Positions 971 through 27,029 are shown, counted from the stretch's first letter. The stretch: DNA of 64,000 nt from Candidatus Latescibacterota bacterium (GCA_009694805.1 SICM01000003.1:10887-74886), one strand, 5' to 3'. Translations and numbers: made by a program. The notes: generated by a model from the sequence alone, not told the origin.

Positions 971-2279
971 GGGGATTCCAACTTTTCTTGCTCGTGCAAG
1001 AAAAGTTGGGCAAAAGAAGCACGCTCGCTCAAGCGCCGCGAGGGGCTGGCGCGGCGCAACCTTAACGTCCTGCGGCCCTTCAACGTTGGGTGCTCACGGG
1101 AGGTGGGATGGCTCCGTCGGGCTCCGGTGGTCTGGGTTTCTGGCGCCGCGCACTCGGGGCTGTCGCGTTCTTCTGGTTATCCTTTTCAATATTCTTTTTG
1201 CAGCCGTATGCCCGGCGGAGGAGTGGAGGGCCGCGCGGCCCGACTATCCGTGGACGTTCCCGCAGGACCACTGGGCGCGGGAGGGGTACCGGACGGAGTG
1301 GTGGTACTTCACGGGACAGTTGTGTGTGGAGGGGGATTCGACCCGGTGGTTCGGGTATCAGTTCACGTTCTTCCGGGTGGGGACTCTGAGAGAACGACCT
1401 GACCTGGCCTCGGACTGGGCCGCGCGGAATCTGATCATGGGGCACGCGGCCATCAGCGATCTTTCGGGGGGTCGGCATCTCTTCAGCGAAGTGCTCTACC
1501 GGGAGGTCCCGCTGCTGGCCGGGTTCAACGCATATCCGGATTCGCTGATCGCGTGGAGCCGGGGGCCCGCCGGGACGGACGGGGCCTGGGCGCTGCGCTG
1601 GAACGGAGGGGCGTTCGACTTTGAGATGCGGGACGACGCGCAGGGCGCGGCCTTCCGGCTGTCCACGCGGCCTCTGAAACCGTTGATCTTTGAGGGGCCG
1701 AACGGATACAGCCGCAAGGGGGAGGGGCCGACGGCGGCGAGCCAGTACTACAGCTTCACCCGGCTCCGGACGGAGGGGACGCTGTCGCTGGAGGGGAGGA
1801 CGTGGCGGGTGCGGGGCGAGAGCTGGATGGACAAGGAGTTCGGGTCGAATCAGCTCGGCAAAGATCAGGTGGGGTGGGACTGGTTCAGTCTGCAACTGGA
1901 CGACGGGCGGGAGGTCATGCTCTACCTGCTGCGCGACGCGGCGGGGGAGGTCGATTTCGCCAGGGGCACGCTGGTCACGGCGACGGGGGAGGCGCGGTAC
2001 CTGACGCGGGAGGCGTGGCGGGTGCAGGCTACGGCGACGTGGAAGAGTCCCCATACCGGGGCGACGTATCCCGCCCGCTGGGTCGTGGAACTTCCGGGGG
2101 AGGGGCTGCGCCTGGAGGTCGCGCCGGAGCTGGCGGATCAGGAGAACCGGGGCAGGCTCGCCGGGGGACTTTTCTACTGGGAGGGCGCGGTGTCCGTGAA
2201 GAACTCCGGGGGGGCGCGGATCGGGCGGGGGTACGTGGAGCTGACCGGGTACGGGACGAAGAACCGGCCGGGGATATAA
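960..2279 (+). CDS. Secreted AttH/CrtC-like lipocalin-domain hydrolase
   Basis: FPQDH, TEWWYFTG, YYSFTRL, SWMDKEF, GWDWFSLQL, YWEGAV, GYVELTGY motifs; signal-like segment VLLVILFNILFAAVCPA; start uncertain (ATG 960 or TTG 1086). Confidence 0.85.
   Translation: MIFEGIPTFLARARKVGQKKHARSSAARGWRGATLTSCGPSTLGAHGRWDGSVGLRWSGFLAPRTRGCRVLLVILFNILFAAVCPAEEWRAARPDYPWTFPQDHWAREGYRTEWWYFTGQLCVEGDSTRWFGYQFTFFRVGTLRERPDLASDWAARNLIMGHAAISDLSGGRHLFSEVLYREVPLLAGFNAYPDSLIAWSRGPAGTDGAWALRWNGGAFDFEMRDDAQGAAFRLSTRPLKPLIFEGPNGYSRKGEGPTAASQYYSFTRLRTEGTLSLEGRTWRVRGESWMDKEFGSNQLGKDQVGWDWFSLQLDDGREVMLYLLRDAAGEVDFARGTLVTATGEARYLTREAWRVQATATWKSPHTGATYPARWVVELPGEGLRLEVAPELADQENRGRLAGGLFYWEGAVSVKNSGGARIGRGYVELTGYGTKNRPGI
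978..1151. repeat. Dispersed structured element, copy 1 (pseudoknot/triplex head)
   Basis: CCAACTTTTCTTG-CTCGTG-CAAGAAAAGTTGG-G-CAAAAGAA-GCACG head; similar to 19691 and 26854. Confidence 0.85.
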
Positions 2280-2341
2280 GGGAAAAGGCGGAAGGCGAAA
2301 GGATGAAGGCGGAGGGCCGTTCATTTTGAATAGGGGGGGCG

Positions 2342-4055
2342 ATGAGACGGACGCTCGTGTTTCTGGCCGTTCTGATGGGTCTGGCAGGAGGCGGTGCGCT
2401 CCAGGCGCAGGAGGCCGGGGAGCTCTCCATGAACGTCCTCTATCTCGATGGGAAGAGTGGCTACGTCGCGCTGCCGTCCGGGATGTTCGACGGCCTGAGG
2501 GAGGCCACGGTCGAGGCGTGGGTCAAGTGGGAACAGTTCAACGACTGGGCACGGGTGTTCGACTTCGGGCGGGAAAAGAACGCCGTGCTGGTGCTGAATG
2601 AGAAGCGGTCCTCCACGGTGCAGTTTGCGATCTACGACCGGAAGGGGAAGGACCACCGGACGCGGGCGGAGAAGTTGATCGCTCCGGGGGTCTGGACGCA
2701 CCTTGCGGCGGTCTGCGGGCCCCGGCGGGATGGAATTCTACGTGGACGGAAGGCTGGTGGATTCGGACCGGTACGAAGGGGGGCTGGATCAGGCCGCCGG
2801 GGGACAGAACTATGTGGGGAGGTCGAACTGGCCCGGGGACGCGCTGTTTCAGGGCTACGTGGCCGAGTTCCGGGTCTGGGACAGGCGGCGCACGCGGGAG
2901 GAGATCCTCTCCCGGATGGGCCGGCTTCTGACGGGCCGGGAGCCGGGGCTGGCGGGCTACTGGCGGTTCAATCGGGCGGAGGGCGCGTCCGTGCCGGATG
3001 ACGGGCCTTCGGGGAGGTCCGCGTCGTTGATGGGGGGCGCTCAGGTCGTGACGGTGCCCGCCGTGGCGAGGTATCTGACGCCGGGGGAGCTGGAGAAGGC
3101 GGCGGCGAACGTGTATGCGCTGGGCCAGACCAGTCTGAAGCAGGGGGCCTACATCACGGCCTACAAGGACTTCCAGGCGGCCCTGGACCTGGTCCCCGGC
3201 TTTCGGGACGCGGACGCCCTGATGCGGGAGGCCGTTGAAAAGGGGCGTTACCGCCTGGCCGTGTTCCCCGTCGCGGCCCGGATGAGGGTCGGGGGTTCGG
3301 GGCAGACTTCCAGGCCGGGGCTGCTGAGGCGCGCGCTGGAGGCCCTGTCGGAGTCCGGAACAGTGGACCTGCTCAGGCAGGAGGAGGCGCGCGCGGCCCT
3401 GGAAGAGGACCTCAACGAAACCCTCCTTTCAGAGCTTTCGAAAGGGCTTCCGCCCTACGTGGATCTGGTGGCTCAGAACAGGCTGGACTGGATTCTGAAG
3501 GGAAAGGGGCTGGATGTGAGGAGGGCAGACCCCGCGCAGATTGTCCAGGCCGCCGGGGGCTCGGGGATCCGGGCCGTGGCGCTGGGAGAGGTGGATGTCG
3601 CGTCGCTGACTCAGGACAGTGACCGGGAGGCGCAGAAGGCGTTCCTGGCGCGGGAAGTCTCTTATTTCGACGACAAGGGCAAGGAGAAGAAGCGGCGCGA
3701 GAAGGCGGGAGAACATACCTATTATGTGGTGAAGAAGGATGTCCGGATGACGTGCCGGGTGAGCTACCGGGTCGTGGAGGCGGAGACGGGGGAGGCCCTG
3801 AAACAGGATTTCGTCGAAGAGGAGGTCCAGGACGCCGTGGAGTACGCGGACCCCAACGGGATGCGACCCCAGGACCTCTGGGTCGAACGGTACGGTGACC
3901 TCCGGCGTCTGGACGGGGAGGACAAGCGGTTCGGGGCGCGGGAGAAGCTGCGCAGCCGGCCCGAGCTGATCTCGGCGGCGCTGGGCGTCCGAATGGCTGA
4001 ACGCCTCCTGTCTTTTGTGGAGGGCTACAGCCCGGGCGGTTCCGGGGGGAAGTGA
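2342..4055 (+). CDS. Secreted LamG/ConA-like lectin domain + TPR-like + C-terminal alpha/beta protein; frameshifted at ~2720
   Basis: ORF 2342..3001 (signal peptide, TVEAWVK, WTHLAAV) continues in ORF 2703..4055 (MEFYVDG, GYVAEFRVW, GLAGYWRF); removing one C from the C4 run at 2720-2723 restores VCGPGGMEF. Confidence 0.75.
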
Positions 4056-4103
4056 CCCGGCAGGGGTTTTCGCGGGTGAGGCAGGGCCAGGGTTCTTGTC
4101 TGG

Positions 4104-4137
4104 TGTGGTCGATTGTGTTATGTGGTCGATTGTGTTA
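4104..4137 (+). repeat. Perfect 17-bp tandem duplication (TGTGGTCGATTGTGTTA x2) in the putative AOR promoter
   Basis: Direct inspection; overlaps TTGTGT-N17-TATATT (4113-4141). Confidence 0.8.
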
Positions 4138-4199
4138 TATTGAGTCTGGTTGCGGCATTGAGTCCCTTTTGTTGAAGACATTATCATCCAGGAGCGCCC

Positions 4200-6104
4200 A
4201 TGAGAGCCACGACAGAGACGCCCAAGCAGGCGACGGATTTCGGCTTCACGCGGGCCGTGTTCGATGTCTCCCGGGGGGAGATGGTGGATTTCAGGGAACT
4301 GCCCGTGCAGGACGACATGGACTTCCTCGGCGGCATCGGGCGATCCTTCAAGATCGTGGGGGAGTACCGCGTCAGCGACCCGTTCGCGCCGGACAGCCCC
4401 CTGGTGCTCAACACGGGCTGTCTGACCGGGACGAGCTACATGACGGGGCTGAGGGCCTACTTCACGGGCTACTCTCCGCTCAAGCGGACGAGGCAGGGGG
4501 CGCCGATGGCGTCCTGGTCGGCCATGAGCGGGTGCTTCGGGCGGAAATTCCGTTCTGCCGGGATCGACGATCTCATCCTGATCGGCGCGGCGAAGGCGCC
4601 GCAGATCCTGCTCGTGAAGCAGTCCGCCGCAGGGCCGGAGGTCTCTCTGCTGCCCGCGCCGACGGAGATCGTGGGGGCGCGGACGCCGGAGAAGTTCGCT
4701 TATCTGAACCAGCGGTTCAACAACCCGGAGGGCCGCGACTTCCCGGCGCAGTTTGCGGTGTTAGGCCCTGCGGGGGAGCACTGGCAGACGGTCTGGTACG
4801 CGAGCATCGCCGGGTCCACGGTGGAGCAGCTTCAGTCGGGCGAGGACAAGATGCGGTTTGCAGGCCGGCTGGGGATGGGGTCCGTGCTCGGCTCCAAGGG
4901 GATCATCGCCATCGTCGCGTACGCGGAGGAAGACCTCTCCCTGAAGGGGGACGAGCGGATGAAGCCGATCAACCGGGAGATCGGCCGGGGGGAGCAGAGC
5001 AAGAACTATCGCCATCCGAACAACCAGGACGGCCGGGGGGGCACGGGCCGGAACGAGCGGCTGCTGGACAGCTTTGGCATTTTGCCGGTCAGGAACTTCG
5101 AGCCGAGGGGGGAGAACCTGGCGACGCCGGTTCATCTGGAGACGGTGCGGGAGGCGGACAAGTACATCGTCATCGACAAGAACTGCTTCGGGTGTCAGAT
5201 CTCGTGCCATCAGGACGTGTACGCAGCGCCGGAGGGGGGCAAGGATCCCAATCCGCGCGCCGCGAGGCGGAACCACGGGCCCTACGTCGGGCGCTACGAG
5301 TTCGAGCCGATGGAGCTGTCCGGGCCGAACAACGGGGTGCTGGACCCGGACCAGAACCTGGCCCTGGCGCGGCTGGCGGATGACCTGGGGTTCGATGCGA
5401 TCTCGGTGAATGTGGTGCTGTCGTTCCTGATGGACTACAACTCCCGGAACGGAAAGCGGGTGGCCGGAGGGCTTCAGTTCGGAGATGCGGAGGGGGCTGC
5501 GCGGGTGATGGAGGAGGTCGCCTACGGGCGGGAGCCGCTGTTCGGCAAGGGAGTCAAGGCGATCTCGGAGGAGATCGGAGGCGCGGGGTTCGCGATGCAC
5601 TCGAAGGGGGTGGAGCTGTCGGCCTACCTGGGACAGACGAATCCGGGCTACCCGTTTGCCACGGCGGGGGGGCACATGTCGATGCGGACTTTTCTGCTGT
5701 ATGCGACGGACCCGGAGTGCAAGCCGGAGTCGGCGGACTACTGGGTGGACAAGATCGCGAATGAAGGATGGAAGATGATCAACGTCAACCTGCACGGGGG
5801 CTGCCTGTTCGCGATGGCCCCGCCGAACCAGGTCGCCGACTCGGTGGCGTCGATCTACGGGATTCCGATGACGGCGGAGCGGGTGCTGGACGCCACGTAC
5901 CGGGCGCATCTGATGGGGTTTGCGCTGGAACAGCGGCAGGGGGCGACGGAGGCGGACTACGACCTGCCTGCGGAGACCTTTGTGGGCGGGCGGAAGGGGG
6001 ATCTGCCGGGGGTGCATTTTCTGACGCGGGGGCTGTTCGAGGAGATCCGGGAGCGGGTGCTGAGCAAGTTTAAGGGGGATGCGGTGAGGTTTGGGTATGC
6101 GTGA
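4200..6104 (+). CDS. Aldehyde:ferredoxin oxidoreductase family (tungstopterin WOR/AOR)
   Basis: RFAGRLGMGSVLGSKG, CFGCQISC (4Fe-4S), YEFE, DDLGFDAIS, HSKGVELSAY; 634 aa; GGAG RBS. Confidence 0.85.
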   Translation: MRATTETPKQATDFGFTRAVFDVSRGEMVDFRELPVQDDMDFLGGIGRSFKIVGEYRVSDPFAPDSPLVLNTGCLTGTSYMTGLRAYFTGYSPLKRTRQGAPMASWSAMSGCFGRKFRSAGIDDLILIGAAKAPQILLVKQSAAGPEVSLLPAPTEIVGARTPEKFAYLNQRFNNPEGRDFPAQFAVLGPAGEHWQTVWYASIAGSTVEQLQSGEDKMRFAGRLGMGSVLGSKGIIAIVAYAEEDLSLKGDERMKPINREIGRGEQSKNYRHPNNQDGRGGTGRNERLLDSFGILPVRNFEPRGENLATPVHLETVREADKYIVIDKNCFGCQISCHQDVYAAPEGGKDPNPRAARRNHGPYVGRYEFEPMELSGPNNGVLDPDQNLALARLADDLGFDAISVNVVLSFLMDYNSRNGKRVAGGLQFGDAEGAARVMEEVAYGREPLFGKGVKAISEEIGGAGFAMHSKGVELSAYLGQTNPGYPFATAGGHMSMRTFLLYATDPECKPESADYWVDKIANEGWKMINVNLHGGCLFAMAPPNQVADSVASIYGIPMTAERVLDATYRAHLMGFALEQRQGATEADYDLPAETFVGGRKGDLPGVHFLTRGLFEEIRERVLSKFKGDAVRFGYA

Positions 6105-6119
6105 TATAGGAGCTTTGAC

Positions 6120-7128
6120 ATGAACCGACCTCCGGAAAAGTTCAAGCGTATCCCTGTCGAACAGCTCCAGGCGTTCGCGGCGGCGTGCCTGAAGGCCGCT
6201 GGGATGCGGGCCGAGCACGCGGACCAGCTCGCGGAGTTGCTGACCCACGGCGACCTGCGCGGGGGTGCGCTCGCACGGCACGCGCGCGCTCTCCGGCTAC
6301 TGCCGGTCGCTGCGTGACGGCCAGGTCAACCCCAACCCCGACCTCCGGGTGCTCCAGGAGACGGATACCTCCGTCCTGGTGGACGGGGACGGGGGGCTGG
6401 GCTACGCGCCGATGATGAGGGCGACCGAGATGGCCATCCCCAAGGCGAAGGCCAAGGGCGTGGCCGTGGGGGCGACGCGGCACATCGGGCACTACGGCTC
6501 CGCCGGCCATTACGTGCGCCGGGCCATGCAGGAGGGGTGTACGGCGTTCTCGGTGCAGGGGGGCCACACCACATACTGGGGGGAGGACGGGAGGAACAAG
6601 ACCATTCAGTCCGCGTACTGGGGCAACCCGCCGATCTGCTTCGGCCTGCCGGGCCAGGACGAGCCGCCGCTGGTGCTGGACGCGGCCACCTGCATCCTGG
6701 CCGACTACCAGCGGGGGGAGGCATTCGACGCGCTCCAGGAGTTGATCCCGGCGGCGTTTTTCAAGTCCATGGGCTACACGGGCGTGGCCACGGCCCTGGG
6801 TGGGGCGTTCGTGGGGATGAACAGCCCGGAGGCAGAGGCGGTGACGGCGAAGTGGCCGGGCGCGCGGCACGGGGGGCTGGTCCTGGTGATGAACATCGGC
6901 CTGTTCGCGCCGGCGGAGGCGTTCCGGACCGGCATCGACAACCTGGTGCGCGGGGTGCGGGAGCACATGGCGCCGGTGCGGGGTTACGCGGAGGCCACGC
7001 TGCCGGGCACGGTCGAGTCCCGCAATGAACAGGCGTACCGCCGGGACGGGATTCCCTACGGCCTGGAGGACCTGGCGCGCATCGAGGCGACGGGGGCGGC
7101 GTTCGGTGTGACGCCGGGGTGGGCGTAG
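6120..7128 (+). CDS. Ldh_2 (malate/L-lactate dehydrogenase 2, ComC/YiaK-like) oxidoreductase; frameshifted at ~6261
   Basis: Family motif DLRGVxSHG is split over ORFs 6120..6317 and 6265..7128 by a G5 run; VDGDGGLG, HYG, GNPPI, LDAAT, LPG. Confidence 0.8.
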
Positions 7129-7205
7129 GAAACGATTGCTTCGCAATAGAGACCTCCGCGGGAGAGGGGACGGGGGTCAGGCCGGTTAATGTAAAGGAGA
7201 ATTCC

Positions 7206-8459: not shown

Positions 8460-8465
8460 CGAGTG

Positions 8466-9215: not shown

Positions 9216-9295
9216 ATCCGCAGATGGGCGCAGAGGGGCGCAGATGGCGCAGGTCACACAGGGTTTCTATCTGCGACATCCGTGAAATCTGCGGG
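9213..9295. repeat. 9-nt periodic inverted arms (CGCAGATGG-type / ATCTGCG)
   Basis: ccgcagatgggcgcagaggggcgcagatggcgcagg ... atctgcgacatccgtgaaatctgcgg. Confidence 0.7.
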
Positions 9296-9303
9296 TGGGT
9301 TCT

Positions 9304-9957: not shown

Positions 9958-10017
9958 CGCGTGATGTGTGACGCGTGATGAGCAGCCCCTCACCCCTCAC
10001 CTTTCACTCCCTTTTTT

Positions 10018-10887: not shown

Positions 10888-10900
10888 AGGAGAGACAGGG

Positions 10901-12153: not shown

Positions 12154-12175
12154 GGCATCAGAGAAGGGGAGGGAA

Positions 12176-14400: not shown

Positions 14401-14414
14401 AAGGAGGCTATGAT

Positions 14415-16751: not shown

Positions 16752-16761
16752 AACGACAATT

Positions 16762-16841: not shown

Positions 16842-16871
16842 GGCAAACGGCAAACGTAAAACGGAGAGACG

Positions 16872-19643
16872 GTGAACCGGGGAAAGTGGACCCTGTGGTT
16901 ATTCCGCGTGGCGGCCGTGGTGCTCCTCCCTTTGCTGTCCTTCGGTGCGCTGGAGTTGGGGTTGAGGATTTTCGGATATGGGAATCCTGCTGACTTTTTC
17001 GTCAAGATCAAAGGGCGTGACGCCTATACGATCAACCCGCAATTCGGCTGGCGCTTTTTCCCTCCGGAGATCGCCAGAAGGCCCGAGCCCTGCAGCCTGC
17101 CGGCCCGGAAGGACGCCCATACGTTTCGCATCTTTGTGCTGGGGGAATCCGCTGCCATGGGGATCCCTGAGCCGGCGTTCGGCTTCGGGCGAATCCTGGA
17201 GGTGATGCTTCGAAACCGGTATCCCGGCATCCGGTTTGAGGTGGTCAACGCGGCCATGACGGCCATCAACTCCCACGTCATCCTTCCGATTGCCCGGGAC
17301 TGCGCGGGGCGAGACGGCGACCTGTTCATCCTGTATGCGGGCAACAACGAGGTGGTGGGGCCCTATGGCGCGGGGACCGTCTTCCAGGCTTATTCGCCCA
17401 GCCTGTCGCTGATCAGGGCCGGGGTCTGGGCGAAATCGACCCGGATCGGGCAATGGGTTGAAAATCTGATGCGATGGTCCGTCAGACGGGATCAGGGTTT
17501 TACGGAGTGGCAGGGGATGGGGATGTTTCTCCACCACCAGGTTCCGGCCGATGACCCGCGCCTGGAGAAGATCTACCAGCACTTTCAAAAGAATCTGACC
17601 GATATCTGCGAGGTCGCCAGGGGCAGGGGGGGACAGGTCATCGTCTGCACGGTGGCGACGAACCTGAAGGACAGCGCGCCGTTTGCCTCGGCGCATCGGC
17701 CTGCCCTGACCCCATCCGACATGGCGGAATGGGAAAGGCTCTACAGGAGCGGGATTGCGCTGGCCGAATCGGGCCAGCACGCCCGTGCGATTGAGGCATT
17801 CCTCAAGGCAGTTCCCTTTGATGACCGGTTCGCGGATCTCCCCTTTCGCCTGGCCCGGAGCTATCTGGCGATGGGCCTGTTCGAGGAGGCCCGCGCACAT
17901 TTCATCCAGGCCCGCGACCTGGACGCCCTCCGGTTCCGGGCGGACACCCGGATCAACGAGATCATCCGTCAGGTGGCAGGCCAAAGGGAGGTCCAGGGGA
18001 TTTTTCTGATCGACGCAGCGCGCGCGTTTGATCTGAATGGGGAGACGCCCATCCCGGGCCAGGAGCTGTTCTACGAGCACGTGCATCTGAACTTCGACGG
18101 GAACACCCTGCTCGCCAGGACGATTTTTGAGCGGGTGAGCCAAATCCTTCAGGCGAAGTTCGGGGACCGGGTTCAGGCTCCGGCCACTCCGCCGTCTAAG
18201 GACCTTTGCCAGGAGCTGTTGGCGCTGACGGACTGGAACCAGTACCGGATGCAGGCCCAGATGGCGGAGATGATGGAACACCCCCCGTTCACCCATCAGC
18301 TCGACACCGAACGGGACCGCCTTCAAAGGTATGGGGCGCTGAAGGCGTTTCGTTTGAAACGTGTCTTTCCGGCCGCTCTCCAGAAGGCCCAGGCCCAGCA
18401 GGTCTACCTCAAGGCCGTGGAACGGGACCCGGAGGACCTGAGTTTCCGGCAGGGGTTCATCCATCTTTTGCAGGAACGCCGGGACTATGCCGCTGCCGCC
18501 GCGCAATGTCGCACGTTGCTGGAGAGGATACCGGATAATCCGTGGTTCCACGGAGGGCTGGGAGATATTCTAAGCCTTCAGGGGAAGGCCGACGAGGCGG
18601 TGGCGCAGTACCGGGAGATGCAGCGCCTCTTACCGGGGCTGGCTGCGCCCCACCTCCAGGTCGGGATGACGCTGGCCAAACAGGGTAAGTTCTCCGAGGC
18701 AGTTGCCGAGTTGAACCGGGCGCTGGAGATCGACCCTGGATCGGAGACCGTGCGGACCCCTCTTACCGAACTCCTCGAAACCCAGGGCAGGCCGGAGGAG
18801 GCCAGAGCGGTCCTCACGTCCGGGCTTGAGAGGGCTCGCCAGCATCAGGACAGGCGCTCTGAAGGCATCTTTCTGGGCAGGCTGGGAAGGGTCTACCACA
18901 GGCAGGAAAAACCGGATGAGGCCCTGAAGTATTACCGGCGCGCGCTGGAGGCCGACCGGGAAGCTCAAAATTACCCCGGGGAGGCGGGTGTCCTCAACGA
19001 TGCCGGGGATGCTTACCTGGCCATGGGGGATTTTTCGGAGGCGCTGAAGTCTTACGAGGCCGGGCTTAAAATCTATGGAGAGATGGACGATCTCTCCGGG
19101 CAGGCCAGCGCCTTTTCGGGAATCGGGAGTGTCTTGCTCAGACGCGGGGGCGGGGGGGGAGACCTGGAAGGGGCGTTGAGGGCTTTCAAGGAGGCCCTTG
19201 AGAATCAGCGCGAGATGGACGACCTTCCGGGGCAGGCCAGCAGTCTGGGCAACATCGGAGACGTGTACTTCCAGAAAGAGGATTGGGAGCAGGCGCTGGC
19301 CTCTTACGGAGAAGGCCTCCAGATACGGAGAGGGCTGGGGGACCTCGCCGGTCAGGCCTTCACATTGAGTTTCATGGGCAACGTCTACATCCGGAAAAAG
19401 GGGCTGGATGAGGCCCTGAACGCCCACGCGCAGGCGCTTGAGATTTACAAGAAGATCGGGGATCTTCCGGGCCAGGCCAATGCCCTCTCCAACATCGGTC
19501 TGTGTTATGCCAAACAGGGGAGGGTGCGTGAGGCGTTCGATCTGCTGAATCAGGCTCGATCCATTTATCTCAAGATGGGGGACAGGGGGGCTGAGTTGCA
19601 GGGGGTGGAGGAGATGATGGGGAGGCTGCAGGGGGGACAGTGA
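16872..19643 (+). CDS. Membrane-anchored SGNH-like + tetratricopeptide repeat protein
   Basis: N-terminal TM, RIFVLGESAAMG, YAGNNEVVG, FYEHVHLN; many TPR units. Confidence 0.8.
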   Translation: MNRGKWTLWLFRVAAVVLLPLLSFGALELGLRIFGYGNPADFFVKIKGRDAYTINPQFGWRFFPPEIARRPEPCSLPARKDAHTFRIFVLGESAAMGIPEPAFGFGRILEVMLRNRYPGIRFEVVNAAMTAINSHVILPIARDCAGRDGDLFILYAGNNEVVGPYGAGTVFQAYSPSLSLIRAGVWAKSTRIGQWVENLMRWSVRRDQGFTEWQGMGMFLHHQVPADDPRLEKIYQHFQKNLTDICEVARGRGGQVIVCTVATNLKDSAPFASAHRPALTPSDMAEWERLYRSGIALAESGQHARAIEAFLKAVPFDDRFADLPFRLARSYLAMGLFEEARAHFIQARDLDALRFRADTRINEIIRQVAGQREVQGIFLIDAARAFDLNGETPIPGQELFYEHVHLNFDGNTLLARTIFERVSQILQAKFGDRVQAPATPPSKDLCQELLALTDWNQYRMQAQMAEMMEHPPFTHQLDTERDRLQRYGALKAFRLKRVFPAALQKAQAQQVYLKAVERDPEDLSFRQGFIHLLQERRDYAAAAAQCRTLLERIPDNPWFHGGLGDILSLQGKADEAVAQYREMQRLLPGLAAPHLQVGMTLAKQGKFSEAVAELNRALEIDPGSETVRTPLTELLETQGRPEEARAVLTSGLERARQHQDRRSEGIFLGRLGRVYHRQEKPDEALKYYRRALEADREAQNYPGEAGVLNDAGDAYLAMGDFSEALKSYEAGLKIYGEMDDLSGQASAFSGIGSVLLRRGGGGGDLEGALRAFKEALENQREMDDLPGQASSLGNIGDVYFQKEDWEQALASYGEGLQIRRGLGDLAGQAFTLSFMGNVYIRKKGLDEALNAHAQALEIYKKIGDLPGQANALSNIGLCYAKQGRVREAFDLLNQARSIYLKMGDRGAELQGVEEMMGRLQGGQ

Positions 19644-19690
19644 GATGAAGAAAGAATCGCGCTCGCTCAGAGGTCTTTCTTGCCGGCGTT

Positions 19691-19866
19691 CCCACTTTTC
19701 TTGCTCGTGCAAGAAAAGTGGGCAAAAGAAGCACGCCCGCTCAGACGCCGCGGGGGGCTTTGGCGCGCCGCAACCTTGACGTTCAGTTGTCGCACCGAAA
19801 TGGGTGCCCCCGGAAAGTGGGTTGCTTCTGCTGGACTCCGGTAGTGGGGGGTTCTGGCGGCGCGCC
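19691..19866. repeat. Dispersed structured element, copy 2
   Basis: CCCACTTTTCTTG-CTCGTG-CAAGAAAAGTGGG-CAAAAGAA-GCACG ... GGCGCGCCGC ... GCGGCGCGCC. Confidence 0.85.
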
Positions 19867-19940
19867 GCGAGTCTTTTTGACTGGGCTGTTCCCTTTATCG
19901 CCGTTTCTCTGCTTCTCCCTGTTCTTGAGAGGGTCCCCAT

Positions 19941-20711
19941 ATGCGAGTCGATTTTCAGACGTTTCTGCCCGGGCAGTTTGACGGGAAACCCTTCGGGCCG
20001 GAGGATCTGACGGCGCTGGCGGACGAGGCGGGGGTCGAGCGGTTCGTGGTGATGCCGGAGACTGCCGAGCGCCCGGACAATGCGGGCCTGGCCGCACGGA
20101 TCAAGGGGGAGCAGAGGATGGTCGGCTGCGCGTCGGTGAACCCGACGCGGGGGGAGGAGGCCGTCCGGGAGTTCGAGGCGGCGGTGAAGTCGTTCGGGTT
20201 CCGGGGGCTGCGCCTGTCCCCCTTCACGCACGGCTACTCCATTGACGGGGAGGTCGCCCGCCCCGCGCTGGAGAAGGCCGGGGAACTGGGCGTCCCGGTC
20301 ACGATGGAGAGCTGCTCGGAGGGGTGCTGGCCGTCGCAGGTCGCCCGGGTGGCGGAACAGTTTCCGGGGGTGACGATCATCGCGGACGTGGGCTTTCGCC
20401 CGCTGGCCCCTCCCGTGAGTCTGGGGCTGGCAGCGCCGCGAGAGGGGCGGATCGCGGACGTGGCGCTGGAGCGTCCCAATGTCTATCTGGGACTGACCGC
20501 GCTGGGGGCGGCGGAGACCTACCTGATCAAGCGCCTCCTGGGGGCTGTGGGGACGGATAAGTTCATCTTCGGGTCGAATGCCCCGTCGGGTATCCCCCTG
20601 TTCGCCATCGGCGGGTTCCAGCGGGCAGGGCTGGGGGAACAGGCGGAGGCGATGATCTTCGGCGAGACGCTCCGAAGGATATACAGGCTGGAGAGGGGGG
20701 ACCGGTCATGA
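19941..20711 (+). CDS. Amidohydrolase_2-fold protein, metal ligands degenerate
   Basis: GFRGLRL, LGVPV, PNVYL, FIFGSNAP, IFGETLRRIY. Confidence 0.75.
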   Translation: MRVDFQTFLPGQFDGKPFGPEDLTALADEAGVERFVVMPETAERPDNAGLAARIKGEQRMVGCASVNPTRGEEAVREFEAAVKSFGFRGLRLSPFTHGYSIDGEVARPALEKAGELGVPVTMESCSEGCWPSQVARVAEQFPGVTIIADVGFRPLAPPVSLGLAAPREGRIADVALERPNVYLGLTALGAAETYLIKRLLGAVGTDKFIFGSNAPSGIPLFAIGGFQRAGLGEQAEAMIFGETLRRIYRLERGDRS

Positions 20712-21445: not shown

Positions 21446-21455
21446 GGTCTGTTCG

Positions 21456-22817
21456 TCATGCTTTCCAGACTTCTTCGACCAGGGACCGCGCGGCATCCAG
21501 GAGGAGGTCGAAGGCCTGAGGACCGACGTTGGACCAGGTGCCGAGGCTGACCTCGTAGCCGCCCTGGGCCCAGGCTGACACCGGGGCCAGGTAGCCGATG
21601 TAGTCGTTGGCATAGCCGAGGCAGAGGGCCATGGGCGCGCAGGTCTCCCGTTTGAGGACCACGCCCATCTGCGCGAACGGCTCACCGGGGATGCCGACGA
21701 GGGCCGCATCGCCCACGCGCAGGACCTGGACCTCGGCGGGGGCCGGGGCGTCTCCCCGGCGCACCCGCACCAGACGCTCCGTCAGGCCCAGCAGGGCGCG
21801 CTCCGCTCTCTTTCGCTCTTCATCGGTTCCGGCCTGGCGAACGACCTCTTCGCCCTGCCGGTGAGCTTCCAGGACTTCGGACAGGGGAGGGAGTTCCCGC
21901 GAGGGGAGGGAGAGGGTCCGGGAGGCCGCTCTGACGTGGGGCGAGGCCACCGGGTAGTCCGGGGCGGACACGGCGGCGATCTGCTTGAGGACCTCCCCGG
22001 CCAGCAGGAGCCCGTAGCGCCGCACGTCGGCGAAGTCCGTGGTCCCGCGAACGGGGTTGATGTCCCCGGCAGCGCCCTGAAGAAAGAGGCAGTGGTCGCA
22101 TCCGATGCCGGAACCTTCGATGAAGGTGGTCATCGCGCCGGGGAAGTCGGCGGAGATGAGGGGCTGCACCTGCACGGTGACCGGATGGCAGGCGAAGTGG
22201 ACCAGGGCGATGTTCGACGCACCCTCCCGCTCGAACAGGAGGAGGGTGGCCTCCGGGTCGTGCGTCCCCCAGTCGGCGATCTGATCGTCCGGCGGGCGAC
22301 GGGTCCAGGGGTAGAGCCTGCCGTCCCTGCCGAGGATGCGGCGGGACCGGGCGAGGCCTTCGGCGCGCCCGATGGCCTGTTTGAGGCGGGCCGGGGCGCG
22401 GTCCCGGTCGGCCAGGGCCACGGCGGAGGCGAGCTGGTCCCGGAGGGTATCGATCCAGGCCGCGGCCCCGGGATGGTCGAGCATCCGGCGGAGGCCGGTT
22501 GTCTCCGGCGTGGAGTGTGCGTGCGTGGCGCTGAGCAGGACGTGATCGGGCGGGATGCCGCAGGCCGCGCGGACGCGTTCCCGGACCTCTGCGGTGAAGT
22601 CCCGCCCCTCTCCGGCCAGGGATTTTGAGAGTCCGATGATGTCGGCGGAGAGGAGGGCCACGCGGCGCTCTCCGTCGCCGACGACCACGGCCCTCGCGTG
22701 GAGGGGGTCGTGTACGCCTTCGAAGAAGGCGTGGCGGGGCACGAAGCCCAGATAAGGGATGGTCAGGGGCGGGGTGATGTCGATGCGGGACGCGCCGGCG
22801 GTGAATCCTTCGTTCAT
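21456..22817 (-). CDS. Neutral/alkaline ceramidase N-terminal-like hydrolase
   Basis: DITPP, GVHDPLHARA, SATHAHSTP, FACHP, ISADFPG, FLQGAAGDINP, GIPGEPF, GYANDYIGY, GGYE. Confidence 0.8.
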   Translation of the reverse strand: MNEGFTAGASRIDITPPLTIPYLGFVPRHAFFEGVHDPLHARAVVVGDGERRVALLSADIIGLSKSLAGEGRDFTAEVRERVRAACGIPPDHVLLSATHAHSTPETTGLRRMLDHPGAAAWIDTLRDQLASAVALADRDRAPARLKQAIGRAEGLARSRRILGRDGRLYPWTRRPPDDQIADWGTHDPEATLLLFEREGASNIALVHFACHPVTVQVQPLISADFPGAMTTFIEGSGIGCDHCLFLQGAAGDINPVRGTTDFADVRRYGLLLAGEVLKQIAAVSAPDYPVASPHVRAASRTLSLPSRELPPLSEVLEAHRQGEEVVRQAGTDEERKRAERALLGLTERLVRVRRGDAPAPAEVQVLRVGDAALVGIPGEPFAQMGVVLKRETCAPMALCLGYANDYIGYLAPVSAWAQGGYEVSLGTWSNVGPQAFDLLLDAARSLVEEVWKA

Positions 22818-22921
22818 GCTCAACCTCTGTGTTTGGCGGCGAGGCTATCCGCGACCTTGCGGATGGAGGGGTGGAAGGGGGACTGTAAATATATGTCCCG
22901 TGCGCTATCCGTGCAAGCGCA

Positions 22922-22950
22922 TTGACAGAACTGGAACGAGGTATTATCAT
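22922..22950 (+). promoter_or_regulatory. Sigma70-type promoter of purM
   Basis: TTGACA-N17-TATCAT about 47 nt upstream of the GTG start. Confidence 0.75.
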
Positions 22951-22997
22951 GAGGGCGGCCGGTCGGGCGTCCGTACCCTCATCGTGAGGCATATTCC

Positions 22998-24032
22998 GTG
23001 ACTCAGAAGAGCGCATACGCAGCGGCGGGCGTGGATATCGAGGCCGCCGACGCCACCAAACGCCGCATGAAGGCCCTCGTGCGGTCCACGTTCGGGCCGG
23101 AGGTGCTGGCGGACATCGGGGGGTTCGGGGGGCTGTTCGCCCCGGACTGGGGGGCCTACCAGGCGCCGGTGCTGGTCGCCAGCGCGGATGGGGTGGGCAC
23201 GAAGCTCAAGGTCGCGTTCATGACGGGCATCCATCACACGGTGGGCGCGGACCTGGTGTGTCACTGCGCGAACGATATCCTGGTGCAGGGGGCGAGGCCG
23301 CTGTTCTTCCTGGACTACATTGGCATGGGGAACCACGACCCGGATGTGGCCCTGGCCGTGGTGTCCGGCGTGGCCGAGGGGTGCCGGCGCGTGGGGTGTG
23401 CGCTGATCGGGGGCGAGACGGCCACCATGCCGGACTTCTACGGCCCCGGCGAGTACGACCTGGCCGGGACCATTGTGGGGGTCGTGGAGCGCGCGCGGAT
23501 CGTGGACGGGTCCGCGATCCGGCCCGGGGACGCGCTGATCGGGCTGGGCTCGGATGGCCTGCACACGAACGGGTACTCCCTGGCCCGGCGGCTGCTGTTT
23601 GAGGCGGCGGGCATGACGCCGGAGACGCGGGTGGAGGCCTGGGGCGCGAAGGTGGGCGAGGAGCTGCTGAAGCCGCACCGACCCTACGTCGAGCCGGTGT
23701 TCCGGCTCCTCGGTCAGGTCCCGGTACACGGCATGGCGCACATCACCGGGGGCGGGCTGGTGGACAACCTCCCGCGCATCCTCCCCTCCGGCAGTGCGGC
23801 CCGCATCGAGAAGGGGACCTGGCCCGTGCTCCCAGTGTTCACGACCCTGAAGGCCGCAGGAGACGTGAGCGAGTCGGAGATGTACCGGGTGTTCAACATG
23901 GGGATCGGGTTCGTGGTGGCCGTGCCGCCGGACCGGGCAGAGGAGACGCTGGCGCTTCTGAAGGCGCAGGGGGAGCGGGCCTACCGGATCGGAGCGGTGG
24001 TGGACGGGGATCAGGGCGTGGAGATCGTGTGA
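22998..24032 (+). CDS. purM: Phosphoribosylformylglycinamidine cyclo-ligase (AIR synthase)
   Basis: YAAAGVDI, GGFGGLF, DGVGTKL, PLFFLDY, GGETATMP, GLHTNGYSLAR, AHITGGGL, FNMGIG. Confidence 0.95.
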   Translation: MTQKSAYAAAGVDIEAADATKRRMKALVRSTFGPEVLADIGGFGGLFAPDWGAYQAPVLVASADGVGTKLKVAFMTGIHHTVGADLVCHCANDILVQGARPLFFLDYIGMGNHDPDVALAVVSGVAEGCRRVGCALIGGETATMPDFYGPGEYDLAGTIVGVVERARIVDGSAIRPGDALIGLGSDGLHTNGYSLARRLLFEAAGMTPETRVEAWGAKVGEELLKPHRPYVEPVFRLLGQVPVHGMAHITGGGLVDNLPRILPSGSAARIEKGTWPVLPVFTTLKAAGDVSESEMYRVFNMGIGFVVAVPPDRAEETLALLKAQGERAYRIGAVVDGDQGVEIV

Positions 24033-24039
24033 GGGGGGA

Positions 24040-24117
24040 TGCGCGGGGATTCATCCCCGCGCAAGGGGGGTGTGGAGGGGGATATGTTTTTTCGTAGCCC
24101 GGCGATTCATCGCCGGG
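24040..24117. repeat. Two REP-like hairpins with GATTCATC core, the second preceded by GTAG
   Basis: TGCGCGGGGATTCATCCCCGCGCA (24040-24063) and GTAG-CCCGGCGATTCATCGCCGGG (24094-24117). Confidence 0.7.
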
Positions 24118-24163
24118 TGGAGATTTCGTAGAACGATGAATGACGAACGATGAATGGGGAGTT

Positions 24164-25180
24164 ATGCCCGACGTTCTCAAGCTGGCGCTCGTGGGCTGCG
24201 GCGCGATTGCGCGGTTTCATCTGGACGGCATTCAGGCGTGCGGGGGGAAGATCCGGGTCACCGCGGCCGTGGACCCGGACCGCGGGAAGGCCGAACGAGT
24301 CGCCTCGGAGACCGGCGCGCAGGTCTTCTCGTCTCTGGCGGAGGCCGTGGCCGGGGGCGATTTCGACGCCGTGGATCTGATGGTCCCGCACGACCTGCAC
24401 GAGGCGGTCGCTGTGAAGGCCTTCCAGGCCGGAAAACACGTGCTGCTCGAAAAGCCGATGGCCCCCACGCTGGAGGCCTGCGACCGCATCCTGGCCTCGG
24501 CGAAGGCCGCGGGCACGGTCTTCATGGTCGCCGAGAACGCCCAGTACTGGCCGGAGGTCGTGAAGGCGAAGGAGCTGATCGACGCCGGGGCCATCGGGGA
24601 GATCCTCACGGCCCGCGCCACGTATGCCGCCGAGTTCGACGCCTACTGGTTCAAGGAGAAGAATGCCTGGCGATATGAGAAGGGGCGCACGGGCGGAGGG
24701 ATCACCATCGACGGGGGCTCCCACTGGATCCGTCCCCTGCGGATGTGGATGGGGGAGATTGAGGAGGTGGTGGGGGTCCTGGACCATCCGCTCAAGCAGA
24801 TGGAGGGGGAGTCCCTGGTCCGCGCCCTCTTCCGGTTCCGATCGGGAAAGATCGCCACGTTCGACGCGATGATGGTCACCACGGTCCTGGGGCCGGATGC
24901 GTCGTGGCGCGTGGTCGGGACGAAGGGAGAGATCGTGATCGAGGGGGGGTTCGGGGGCGGGATCAAGCTGTTTGACGTCGCGAACCGGGGAGGAAAGCTG
25001 ATGGCCGAGCCGCAGGGCTATGGGAAGTCCTTCGGGCCGGAGCTGGACGACTTTGCGGAGGCCGTGTTACGCGGAAAACCCCTGGAGGCCGGGCCGGACT
25101 ACGCGCTGGGCGAGTTGCGCACGGCCCTGGCCATCTACCGGTCTGCCGAGAGCAGGCAATGGGAGAAGGTGTGGGGGTGA
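24164..25180 (+). CDS. Gfo/Idh/MocA family oxidoreductase
   Basis: LVGCGAIA, GKHVLLEKPMA, GGGITIDGGSH. Confidence 0.9.
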   Translation: MPDVLKLALVGCGAIARFHLDGIQACGGKIRVTAAVDPDRGKAERVASETGAQVFSSLAEAVAGGDFDAVDLMVPHDLHEAVAVKAFQAGKHVLLEKPMAPTLEACDRILASAKAAGTVFMVAENAQYWPEVVKAKELIDAGAIGEILTARATYAAEFDAYWFKEKNAWRYEKGRTGGGITIDGGSHWIRPLRMWMGEIEEVVGVLDHPLKQMEGESLVRALFRFRSGKIATFDAMMVTTVLGPDASWRVVGTKGEIVIEGGFGGGIKLFDVANRGGKLMAEPQGYGKSFGPELDDFAEAVLRGKPLEAGPDYALGELRTALAIYRSAESRQWEKVWG

Positions 25181-25354
25181 GGCACGCTCGTTTTTAGTTG
25201 TTCGCAAAGGCTTTATCCTCTATATTCATTGAGATAGGCTGCGAAGGACGGGTCGGTTCGGGGATCGGGACAGGCGCTCAGGGGATTTGGGTTTGCGAAC
25301 GAGGAATATAGCGATTCATGGTCGTATTGACGATGTGAGGAGACATAACGTATT

Positions 25355-25615
25355 ATGTGGAGCTGGTTTCGGAGCCTTTTCAAGCGAGAGTCCCCCACTC
25401 CGGCCTCTCCTCCCGCGCGGGGCACGGTCAAGCGCATCGTCCGGGACAGGGGATTCGGGTTCATTCGGAGCACCGACGGAAAAGAGGTTTTTTTTCATAG
25501 ATCGGCTCTGGTGGGGATGGACATGGGCGCTCTGTCGGAGGGGCAGAAGGTGGAGTTCGTACTGGAGAATAGTCCCAAAGGCCCCAGGGCGTCCAGGGTG
25601 CGGGTGGTGAGGTAA
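25355..25615 (+). CDS. Cold-shock domain protein with 21-aa N-terminal extension
   Basis: GTVK, RGFGFI (RNP1), VFFHRS (RNP2), LSEGQKVEF, PKGPRA. Confidence 0.85.
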   Translation: MWSWFRSLFKRESPTPASPPARGTVKRIVRDRGFGFIRSTDGKEVFFHRSALVGMDMGALSEGQKVEFVLENSPKGPRASRVRVVR

Positions 25616-25619
25616 AAGC

Positions 25620-25712
25620 GGGGATCGGGGAGCGAGGGGTGGGGATTGAGAAAAAGACAAAGGCAAAACGTTCTGATTTTTCTCACCCCTCGCCCCTCAC
25701 CCCTGACCCCTG
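25620..25712. repeat. 7-nt periodic inverted arms (GGGGATC-type / CCCCTCA-type) between convergent genes
   Basis: ggggatcggggagcgaggggtggggattgagaaaa ... ttttctcacccctcgcccctcacccctgacccctg. Confidence 0.75.
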
Positions 25713-26798
25713 TTTCAGGATCTCCACAATCCGTTCTGCCGCGTGTCCATCCCAGAGATCAGGAATTCGCCCCTGCTTGTGGGACCCCTCCAGGATTCGC
25801 AACGCCTCCCGGACAATCATCTGAGGGTTTGTGCCGACCAGGGTGCTCGTCCCCACGGACACCGTCTCAGGGCGTTCGGTGTTCTCTCTGACGGTGAGGC
25901 AGGGGATGCCGAGGACCGTGGTCTCCTCCTGCAGGCCGGCCGAATCCGTGATGACGAGCCGGGCTTCTTTTTGAAGTTTGATGGAGTCGAAGTAGCCCAC
26001 CGGATCGGTCAGGATCAGTTTTGGCATGGCGGCGATCTGATTCTGGAGGCCGAAGATCTCCAGGGCCTTTCGGGTGCGTGGGTGGATGGGGAAGACGAGG
26101 GCGATGCGCTCCTGAATCTTCTGAAGGGCCGACAGGATGCCTCGAAGCGTCTCCGGATAGTCCACGTTGGAGACCCGGTGCAGGGTCACCAGGGCATATT
26201 CCCCGGGCTGGACGCCGAGGGTTGAGAGGATGGGCGATCGGTCCGCGGCGGTCAGGGCATGAAAGAGGGAGTCGATCATGACGTTGCCCACGCGGTGAAC
26301 TTTGTCGGGGGGGTAGCCTTCGCGCATCAGGTTGGCGTCGGCCTCCGCGGAGGTGGTGAACAGGAGATCGGAGACGGCGTCAGTGACGATCCGATTGATC
26401 TCTTCGGGCATGGTCCGGTCGGAGCTGCGCAGGCCCGCTTCCACGTGGGCGACGGGGACGTGGAGTTTGGCGGCGCAGAGCGCGCAGGCGAGGGTGGAGG
26501 TGACGTCGCCGACGACCAGGACGAGGTCAGGACGCTGTTCGATCAGGAGTTCCTCAAAGGCGATCATGACCTTTGCGGTCTGGACGGCCTGCGAGCCGGA
26601 GCCGATGCCCAGATGCCGGTCCGGCTCCGGGAGGCCGAGGTCACGGAAGAAGACCTCGGACATCTGCCAGTCGTAGTGCTGGTCGGTGTGGACGAGGCAG
26701 GGCGAGAAGGCGTCGGGGTGTCTCTGGAGCGCCCGGAGGATGGGGGCGATCTTCATGAAGTTGGGACGTGTGCCGACGACGAGGGTGATGGAACGCAT
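25683..26798 (-). CDS. wecB: UDP-N-acetylglucosamine 2-epimerase (non-hydrolysing)
   Basis: VGTRPNFMK, HTDQHYD, VGDVTST, HVEAGLRS, MPEEINR, TDSAGLQEE, NTERPE. Confidence 0.93.
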   Translation of the reverse strand: MRSITLVVGTRPNFMKIAPILRALQRHPDAFSPCLVHTDQHYDWQMSEVFFRDLGLPEPDRHLGIGSGSQAVQTAKVMIAFEELLIEQRPDLVLVVGDVTSTLACALCAAKLHVPVAHVEAGLRSSDRTMPEEINRIVTDAVSDLLFTTSAEADANLMREGYPPDKVHRVGNVMIDSLFHALTAADRSPILSTLGVQPGEYALVTLHRVSNVDYPETLRGILSALQKIQERIALVFPIHPRTRKALEIFGLQNQIAAMPKLILTDPVGYFDSIKLQKEARLVITDSAGLQEETTVLGIPCLTVRENTERPETVSVGTSTLVGTNPQMIVREALRILEGSHKQGRIPDLWDGHAAERIVEILKQGSGVRGEG

Positions 26799-26853
26799 GG
26801 GGCGACCTCTTTGGGAGGGGATCGTTCCCCCGGCTCCGGGAGCCCCATTCCAG

Positions 26854-27029
26854 GTCCAACTTTTCTTGCTCACCCAAGAAAAGTTGGACAAAAGAAGGGT
26901 GCTCCTCAAGCGCCGGAGGGGCTTGGCGCGCCGCAACCTTAACGTTCAGTTGTCGCACAGAAATTTGTGCCCCCGGCATGTGGGGTGCTTCTGCTGGACT
27001 CCGGTGGTGGGGGTTTCTGGCGGCGCGCC
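26854..27029. repeat. Dispersed structured element, copy 3
   Basis: GTCCAACTTTTCTTG-CTCACC-CAAGAAAAGTTGGAC-AAAAGAA-GGGTG ... GGCGCGCCGC ... GCGGCGCGCC. Confidence 0.85.

Follow-up and report, generated by a model that had tools for sequence, protein, structure and literature searches.

The 64,000-nt window analyzed here, from a Candidatus Latescibacterota bacterium (GCA_009694805.1 SICM01000003.1:10887-74886), contains three copies of a non-coding element composed of a structured head and a long hairpin tail, which raises the question of what kind of element this is and what its fold is needed for. In a preliminary description it had been presented as a three-copy element selected for its structure, with a covarying pseudoknot and a possible triple helix, and a mobile element, a terminator and a ribozyme-like RNA had been among the options offered for it. 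The element is a family of 136 copies in the assembly to which the window belongs (here named G000; 4.89 Mb, 293 contigs, 92% complete), and its head is found in distant bacterial lineages. [quoted passage not shown] Among the options offered earlier, a non-autonomous mobile element fits best, in view of the insertion polymorphism and the patchy distribution across phyla, while nothing was found that supports a role as terminator or ribozyme.

Family size and fold of the head

The three copies are situated on the + strand at the places originally assigned to them (Table 1), are the only family members inside the window and align with a mean column identity of 81% over 249 columns. A BLAST search against G000 gave 66 matches among the best 40 of 147 candidates, and nhmmer with a profile derived from 64 full copies gave 227 matches, 136 of which scored at least 40, so that the recurrence is far beyond chance. 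These 136 copies comprise 97 of full length, 38 heads with a tail outside the profile and one tail-only match.

The head of about 70 nt consists of an A/T-rich hairpin of 13-15 bp (H1), a linker of 7-9 nt, a 5-mer that provides the downstream strand of the predicted pseudoknot, and a short GC hairpin (H2) with a conserved loop of 9-10 nt, the loop CTCANNCGCC being invariant across the seed of our head covariance model R1 (74 positions, 18 pairs, 30 seed sequences, none from Firmicutes). The stem CTTTTCTTG/CAAGAAAAG with outer pairs CCAAC/GTTGG or CCCAC/GTGGG, and the pairing of its loop with the downstream 5-mer as CGTGC/GCACG or CACCC/GGGTG, were present as previously reported. Covariation was determined in an alignment of 103 distinct rows, obtained from 107 cmsearch matches over 80 sources; about nine of these matches are antisense to the palindromic H1 alone and were kept, so that the bias from them runs against structure. 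Pairs were counted from the stored structure with four added pseudoknot pairs, the pseudoknot being absent from the model. Standard pairs occupied 97.1% of 2136 cells as compared to 78.5% (standard deviation 0.5) in shuffled alignments, and none of 500 shuffles reached the observed value, in agreement with the earlier view of a structure-selected element with a covarying pseudoknot. Changes on both sides were detected for 20 of the 22 head pairs (12/14 in H1, 4/4 in the pseudoknot and 4/4 in H2), with 375 doubly changed cells as compared to 98.3 in shuffles, and pairing fell to 44-59% in a control in which the partners were slid by 1-3 columns. For the pseudoknot, 94.9% of the cells were paired.

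An independent parse, in which 24 of 213 heads failed, found the loop 5-mer and the 5-mer after the linker fully complementary in 119 of 189 heads and complementary at four of five positions in 53. At least 12 compensated pseudoknot variants exist, namely CGTGC/GCACG, TGCCC/GGGCA, CGCCC/GGGCG, CGTCC/GGACG, CGCTC/GAGCG and CACCC/GGGTG as well as GCCCC/GGGGC, TGTCC/GGACA, CCTG/CAGG, CGCA/TGCG, TGCA/TGCA and TGCG/CGCA, and permutation of the partners among 32 types never reached the observed value (0/2000). By covariation, the loop pairs with a downstream segment in the manner of an H-type pseudoknot. The covariation supports a predicted fold with a 14-bp H1, a loop-to-downstream pseudoknot and an H2 with conserved loop.

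Covariation of the linker with the stem and the folded strand

The linker AAAAGAA had been noted to be a mirror of the purine arm AAGAAAA, and in the wider family it indeed behaves as the strand of a triple helix would. In general form, T(a)CT(b) stands for the pyrimidine arm, A(b)GA(a) for the purine arm and A(a)GA(b) for the linker. The following counts include heads in which the 3' run of the linker reads one A longer, the next base being A. The state (a,b) = (4,2) was found in 91 heads from G000, its relatives and records titled Latescibacterota; (3,2) in 60 heads, mostly of a G000 subfamily in which a T-A pair was replaced by C-G and the linker A by C; (3,3) in 19 heads from Firmicutes; (4,3) in 11 heads of the G000 type and from one Ruminiclostridium record; and (4,4) in one head from Selenomonadaceae, while (5,2) with a matching linker was found in eight genomes of the genera g2, g13 and g20. 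In 194 of 198 heads, the 5' A-run of the linker is as long as the 3' A-run of the purine arm, with three states (3, 4 and 5) represented, and the match holds in 27 of 30 genome-by-type observations (permutation 0/5000). In heads with a not equal to b (n = 178), the arrangement is a mirror in 174 and a direct repeat in none. Position by position, the linker thus matches the purine strand and changes with it, as is required of a third strand. Alternative Watson-Crick pairing between the linker and the H1 5' arm, which a direct repeat would have implied, was rejected as no such repeat was found, whereas a mirror fits a third strand in the major groove. This three-way covariation of linker and stem is what a triple helix predicts, and the head appears to form one. 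The 3' flank TTCTTTTG was also considered as a covarying triplex or helix partner and rejected, since it occurs with both stem variants and, judged by eye, is not conserved in other genomes.

As to the strand that folds, a purine-motif triplex (A.A-U, G.G-C) would result on the + strand; on the minus strand, the third strand would run parallel to the purine arm in the classical U.A-U/C+.G-C motif, which is the one known to be stable in RNA. In the order of the minus strand, the pseudoknot strand is followed by the U-rich strand, the U-rich arm, the loop and the A-rich arm, and one interrupting C.G-C sets the register. Judged from triplex chemistry and chain topology, the minus strand is probably the folded one, because the third strand would enter the deep groove from the pseudoknot junction and because its 1-2 connecting nt could span the distance to the 5' end of the outer 5-6 base pairs; the + strand is disfavored because there the chain would need to turn back and run alongside itself.

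Distribution among bacteria

Besides G000, a BLAST search of 41 relatives detected the complete element only in G001, which belongs to the same genus, and the head of about 70 nt alone in three further genomes of the class; carriers account for 6 of the 41 relatives, G000 included. With R1, and at most 32 candidates scored per genome, the head was found to be multi-copy in 44 of 151 sampled genomes of the phylum. By family, it was present in 24/30 genomes of f3, 18/19 of f4 and 1/1 of f1 (G000, itself a carrier, left out), as compared to 0/64 in f2 and 0/36 in the others. An exact pattern made of the 3' arm, the linker and the H2 loop was scanned over one genome per species and gave at least 74 loci among the matches listed, which derive from records titled Candidatus Latescibacterota (several metagenome-assembled genomes, MAGs), uncultured Gemmatimonas sp., Clostridia, Ruminococcus, Oscillospiraceae, Ruminiclostridium, Bacillota, Porcipelethomonas and Selenomonadaceae. 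Among these loci, L054, L064, L077 and L085 are four single pattern matches without hairpin that look like chance. Four Firmicutes carriers possess 4, 19, 8 and 10 R1 matches in genomes of 1.4-2.8 Mb, while none of 120 other sampled genomes in the order of one of these carriers gave a match, under stricter Infernal filters and with the model built from non-Firmicutes sequences. Part of one phylum thus carries the element clade-wide, whereas its occurrence elsewhere is sporadic, though in multiple copies. No blastn match was obtained in 72,556 plasmid or 50,697 phage records, and two pattern matches in viral contigs, both without hairpin, also look like chance.

Turnover of copies

Empty sites in relatives, proposed as a check in the preliminary description, were found in the congeneric G001 for copies 1 and 3 of the window. 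At the site orthologous to that of copy 1, the flanks (83-87% identical) are 45 nt apart as compared to 246 nt in the window; at that of copy 3, head and tail are absent and the distance is about 70 nt as compared to about 300 nt, the accessory 3' module and the C-rich hairpin being still present. For copy 2, only the left flank was found, with 71% identity. Conversely, two copies at loci of a congeneric record are absent from G000 (contigs C61 and C152), and orthologous sites are thus polymorphic for presence and absence of the element. At three loci shared by the two congeners, the head subfamilies differ: at one of them, H1, linker and pseudoknot strand differ as a set, (3,2)/CGTGC vs. (4,3)/TGCCC, with tail and H2 almost the same, and at the two others the tail types differ. 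Across the family, compensated differences separate subfamilies, and the similar frequency of all mismatch types within single copies suggests neutral decay after insertion.

Some copies are interrupted or incomplete. In a record titled Candidatus Latescibacterota (L113:2859-4180), an insertion sequence (IS) of about 1.3 kb, encoding a 378-aa open reading frame (ORF) judged by eye to be of the rve type, occupies precisely the H1 loop and is accompanied by a duplication of 5 bp (CCGCC). The outer stems of the two halves do not match each other, and the right-hand junction of the IS recurs in a second copy (L093:1-300) with a different outer stem. At Firmicutes MAG loci (L108:5060-5125, L068, L074 and L089), partial units that run from a small upstream hairpin through a spacer and the H1 5' arm into the loop are arranged in tandem just upstream of complete units, and in three different genomes they stop at the junction of loop and 3' arm, a breakpoint that may be a reaction site or a slippage product.

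Organization of the window copies, tails and accessory modules

Table 1. Coordinates of the three element copies and their parts, counted from the first nucleotide of the window.
Feature	Coordinates	Strand	Remarks
Copy 1, head and tail	977-1152	+	R1 match 976-1051, 82.9 bits
Copy 1, H1	977-1010	+	5' arm 977-990, loop 991-996 (CTCGTG), 3' arm 997-1010
Copy 1, linker	1012-1018	+	AAAAGAA, mirror of purine arm AAGAAAA; candidate triplex third strand
Copy 1, pseudoknot 3' strand	1019-1023	+	GCACG, complement of loop/closing bases CGTGC at 993-997
Copy 1, H2	1024-1042	+	CTCGC / loop TCAAGCGCC / GCGAG, then GGGGCT; loop motif 1028-1037
Copy 1, tail	1048-1152	+	Long irregular hairpin; closing strands GGCGCGGCGC (1048-1057) and GCGCCGCGC (1143-1151)
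Copy 2	19690-19866	+	R1 match 19689-19763, 78.8 bits
Copy 2, H1	19690-19723	+	
Copy 2, linker	19724-19730	+	
Copy 2, pseudoknot strand	19731-19735	+	
Copy 2, H2	19736-19754	+	Loop motif CTCAGACGCC, 19740-19749
Copy 2, tail	19762-19866	+	
Copy 3	26855-27029	+	R1 match 26854-26927, 95.5 bits
Copy 3, H1	26855-26888	+	Loop CTCACC
Copy 3, linker	26890-26896	+	
Copy 3, pseudoknot strand	26897-26901	+	GGGTG
Copy 3, H2	26902-26918	+	Loop motif 26905-26914
Copy 3, tail	26925-27029	+	
Accessory C-rich/G-rich hairpin module 3' of copy 3	27068-27091	+	CCCCTCCCC...GGGAGGGG

In the window copies, the H2 loop motif is CTCA[AG][AG]CGCC and each tail of about 105 nt is closed by a GC stem of 9-10 bp. Tails are lineage-specific, yet they keep a GC closing stem adjoining GGGGCT. 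The long-range stem reported as GGCGCGGCGC/GCGCCGCGC vs. GGCGCGCCGC/GCGGCGCGCC was recovered and covaries, its middle pair being CG in 44 and GC in 8 of 64 copies. For the inner hairpin GCACC/GGTGC vs. GCACA/TGTGC, the compensatory exchange described earlier is not general, as the fifth pair is C.T in 38 of 64 copies, A-T in only 12 and C-G in 2. In many copies a T-rich tract comes after the tail closing stem, and some Firmicutes copies have a GC hairpin with TTTT after H2.

The element often continues past the 3' end first assigned to it into accessory modules. A C-rich hairpin motif was found within 150 nt downstream of 29 of the 97 full copies in G000 as compared to 5 of 97 upstream, with about 5% expected. 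This hairpin module, CCCCTC(C/T)CC ... GG(A/G)GAGGGG, often follows the element and has 3339 occurrences in G000 on both strands; in the unit that follows copy 3, the 3' arm of the module coincides in part with the Shine-Dalgarno-like GGGAGGGG ahead of the ATG at 27096, where an ORF begins. A similar C-rich motif is present in a long Firmicutes unit. In one Firmicutes MAG, the head is followed by about 800 nt of conserved non-coding sequence, whose hairpins show compensated differences between copies. The head is the first module of this unit (L044, L047, L079 and L089), which has at least 19 copies, one with an extra insertion of about 160 nt after H2 and one located just upstream of rpmH. 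Furthermore, a short head variant that keeps a matching mirror linker and H2 is found inverted 270-340 nt from some full copies. It has a 2-nt loop and no pseudoknot strand (G000 loci L013:208-270, L024:1847-1909 and L026:1875-1937), and together with the full copy it makes up a composite with hairpins at both ends. On the 5' side, a conserved module, GCTCGCTCAGAG..CTTTCTT..CCGGC, is present in the flank of copy 2 (19641-19690) and in that of many G000 copies; with its likeness to a degenerate linker/H2 and a further pyrimidine arm, it looks like what is left of another head.

Gene context

With G000 genes called crudely by a codon-usage score, all 136 copies are intergenic, often 0-76 nt off a gene end; copy 2 of the window, for instance, is flanked by two + strand ORFs (16872-19643 and 19941-20711). 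Both flanking genes have the orientation of the element at 50 copies and the opposite one at 54, the remainder being divergent (11), convergent (11) or at contig ends (10), and there is thus no orientation preference relative to transcription. At the loci of other genomes, opposite orientation of the flanking genes was more frequent than same orientation (26 vs. 13). The few neighbors shared between loci are the housekeeping genes for BipA, RF3, RecG and Mfd, and an all-against-all blastp comparison, covering the ORFs of 120 aa or more at 74 loci, revealed no ORF family recurring beside the element. A promoter scan gave three promoter-like sites as compared to 1.0 expected, which is not informative, and a terminator scan nine terminator-like sites as compared to 6.1 expected, which is not significant.

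Orientation patterns were seen in single genomes. Fifteen head copies within 110 kb share one orientation at G107:C1:4927194-5037306, and at the multi-copy loci of a named Latescibacterota record the genes run mostly against the element direction (10 opposite vs. 3 same). On contig C1 of G036, heads are distributed 33+:19- below 2.1 Mb and 12+:21- above it; a replication-strand bias was rejected here, since GC skew and coding-strand bias, sampled at 20 places, switch sign near 1.6 and 2.9 Mb instead.

Proposed propagation of the element and alternative explanations

We propose that the element spreads within genomes and between distant bacterial lineages, and that its head would fold as a single strand into an H-type pseudoknot, with the linker lying along the H1 stem as the third strand of a triplex, alongside the short GC hairpin H2 and the lineage-specific long tail hairpin. 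The fold would act at the propagation step, where a trans-acting factor might recognize or process a single-stranded DNA or an RNA intermediate, and would not be required for a host function of each copy, because compensatory changes mark subfamilies while single copies gain all mismatch types at similar rates. Since a conserved core extends from soil lineages of high GC content to gut Firmicutes of low GC content, with a patchy distribution and without a linked gene, the partner should be either widespread or traveling with the element. A bolder version of this proposal is possible, albeit rather doubtful: the family might be a new class of phylum-crossing non-coding mobile element, with a single-stranded, telomerase-like pseudoknot and a U.A-U/C+.G-C helix of 7-9 triples, handled by an enzyme or host machine new to transposition and having its reaction site at the junction of H1 loop and 3' arm, for which the recurrence of breakpoints in three Firmicutes genomes is a hint. 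If true, the family would be the first among bacterial repeats to have a triple helix as its defining feature.

A number of observations weigh against a mobile repeat with this fold. No mobilizing gene, be it a transposase, a reverse transcriptase or another, is linked to the element, and the linked HUH, TnpB or reverse transcriptase gene envisaged in the preliminary description was looked for and none was linked. Of 41 relatives, 20 possess Y1_Tnp, among them 15 of the 36 non-carriers, R1 detected no head in six Y1_Tnp loci, and RVT_1 and Y1_Tnp each occur in only two of five further carriers. In the 92% complete assembly of G000, neither Transposase_20 nor RVT_1 was detected; there is a single weak Y1_Tnp with unrelated small palindromes on its flanks, and a single TnpB with a 3'/downstream region unrelated to the element. 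Neither terminal inverted repeats nor a clear target-site duplication were definable at the empty sites, where flanks are too diverged and no systematic search for terminal inverted repeats was made, and presence/absence could be due to deletion instead of insertion. Moreover, the clade-wide presence in f3 and f4 also fits long vertical retention with a host function. With respect to the fold, the H1 and H2 counts lean toward structure because the covariance-model alignment was fitted to these hairpins, and covariation cells count sequences rather than events, and block exchange between copies can spread co-adapted sets. The wobble evidence on the folded strand conflicts. In the head helices of 96 unique heads (1661 cells with letters), 1594 Watson-Crick, 21 G.T, 21 A.C and 25 other combinations were counted; 17 of the 21 A.C fall on one H1 position in Firmicutes copies from seven genomes, corresponding to G.U on the minus strand, and 12 of the 21 G.T-type wobbles (10 T.G and 2 G.T) on the terminal H1 pair. 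The pseudoknot has 59 A.C, about 55 of them at the junction pair, vs. 4 G.U. In the tails of 64 copies, the earlier statement that wobbles favor the + strand applies to the inner hairpin (T.G 21 vs. C.A 2) and fails for the closing stem (A.C 13 vs. G.T 3).

The main rival, which we regard as unlikely though deserving of serious attention, is a domesticated cis-acting RNA, i.e., a fold transcribed as part of operons and comparable to REP stabilizers or ENE-type triple helices that would cap an RNA end, block exonucleases or modulate termination or processing. Hairpins would form in either orientation, and on the minus strand the U-rich strand, the U-rich arm and the A-rich arm would form the U.A-U triplex. 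Such a role is in line with the intergenic position of all copies, often 0-76 nt from a gene end, with the retention across whole families of the phylum (f3, 24/30; f4, 18/19), with the T-rich tract after the tail closing stem in many copies and the GC hairpin plus TTTT after H2 in some Firmicutes copies, and with the excess of opposite over same orientation (26 to 13) at the loci of other genomes. In G000, by contrast, there is no orientation bias (50 vs. 54) and the excess of terminator-like sites (9 vs. 6.1) is not significant; single copies decay with all mismatch types at similar rates, the orthologous loci of the congener are empty or occupied by different subfamilies, and the element is patchy in Firmicutes (0/120).

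It is improbable that the copies are genes for trans-acting structured RNAs, for example guide-RNA scaffolds of the OMEGA/TnpB, IscB or IS110 type, systems with known pseudoknot-triplex cores, that would use flanking DNA as guide. A conserved head beside variable neighboring sequence, a long and ornate tail, which in one Firmicutes MAG comprises up to about 800 nt of conserved non-coding DNA, and the multi-copy state, which is shared by HEARO-type RNAs, would suit such genes, but no HEARO or similar Rfam family matched, the 3' end and downstream region of the single TnpB of G000 show no similarity to the element, Transposase_20 is absent from G000 and no neighboring ORF is conserved. Slightly less credit still is given to a feature of duplex DNA, in which a protein-binding palindrome with a homopurine mirror repeat (H-DNA or cruciform) would serve nucleoid organization, topology or replication, roles that have been proposed for REP/BIME. 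Covariation between the loop and a downstream strand would be meaningless in duplex DNA or a simple cruciform, and the modest, position-dependent orientation pattern of G036 (33+:19- vs. 12+:21-), which might otherwise speak for such a feature, follows neither GC skew nor coding-strand domains; nevertheless, pairing is almost purely Watson-Crick on both strands (1594/1661 cells), and the insertion of an IS with rve-type ORF in the H1 loop, with its 5-bp duplication and a junction recurring in a second copy, implies that the hairpin is a structural target in DNA.

If the fold of the proposed mobile repeat is real, several hundred natural sequences with a co-varying triple helix, a pseudoknot and two hairpins would be available, which would be rare sequence-level evidence for base triples in bacteria. 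The identity of the partner could reveal a new mobilization route or a new use of triplexes, such as RNA end protection or recognition of single-stranded DNA. On the practical side, the family fills many intergenic regions, fragments assemblies and is unannotated, and a covariance model could be used for masking and as a marker of recent genome change.

Comparison with known systems

The earlier view that the element belongs to no named family agrees with a comparison to Rfam 15, performed on the window and 14 loci: with gathering scores, there was no match in the 64-kb window and only a tRNA in 11 other-phylum loci, and in E-value mode only unrelated sub-threshold matches were obtained. In the literature consulted, which comprised reviews, primers and unrelated papers, no description of such an element was found. 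Thus, on the basis of Rfam 15 and this literature, the combination of pseudoknot and triple helix appears to be uncatalogued for bacterial repeats. Several known systems were rejected as identities. Integron attC sites (R''/R' core GTTRRRY, cassette arrays next to an integrase) were not supported, as the stem-foot GTT is present in one subfamily only (GTTGG; others have GTGGG, GTAGA, GGTGA or GTAAA) and the copies are located between housekeeping genes. The H2 loop CTCA[AG]NCGCC shares consistently only CGCC with NWACCNNTAAGTGCGCCCTYNN, the nic consensus of MOBQ origins of transfer as given in PMC3832669. Type III toxin-antitoxin RNAs (ToxI/CptI-like, of the pseudoknot-triplex kind) are tandem repeats directly upstream of a toxin gene, whereas the copies are dispersed and lack a recurrent neighboring ORF.

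Like the palindrome-associated derivatives (PATEs) of IS200/IS605 and the TnpB omega-RNAs, the element has a single-strand structure under selection, and in those systems, too, non-autonomous derivatives can be numerous. A pseudoknot and a triplex are features of some OMEGA/TnpB-type guide scaffolds. The element differs in that it is linked neither to Y1_Tnp nor to TnpB; an origin from such elements was rejected, as there is no similarity to the ends of the resident tnpA/tnpB or to the TnpB 3' region, and nhmmer detected no match to the element on the G000 contig that carries TnpB. The predicted fold of the element resembles triple helices of the telomerase, SAM-II and ENE type, its stem and candidate third strand changing together. 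Those, however, are single-copy functional RNAs with known ligands or partners, whereas the element is a dispersed repeat in both orientations with a much longer stem (13-15 bp) and a putative triplex.

Bacterial MITEs (Correia, ERIC, BOX, RUP) resemble the element in being non-coding, 100-300 nt long, non-autonomous, polymorphic in presence, modular and divided into subfamilies. The words pseudoknot, triple and triplex are absent from a 2024 MITE review (PMC10969869). Different from MITEs, neither a parent IS nor, at the diverged empty sites, terminal inverted repeats or a clear target-site duplication could be recognized for the element, and its conserved part is a single-strand fold. Finally, the element shares with REP/BIME and REPIN sequences more than 100 intergenic copies per genome in both orientations, palindromic hairpins, a mosaic with accessory modules and a hairpin loop targeted by an IS, and it is in this sense a high-copy extragenic palindrome. 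REP/BIME and REPIN sequences are mobilized by RAYT Y1 transposases. Dependence on RAYT was rejected for the element, as the only RAYT-like gene of G000 is flanked by other palindromes and Y1_Tnp does not consistently co-occur with the element. The former, a short RAYT-like Y1_Tnp ORF at G000:C64:13000-14700, lies between palindromes of the GCCAGATTGGCG and CGCCAGGCTCCTGCCTGGCG types, which suggests a second, unrelated REP family in G000. While REPs are hairpins of 20-40 nt that are specific to a genus or species, the element possesses a 70-nt core that is conserved across phyla and combines a covarying pseudoknot with a triplex-type linker.

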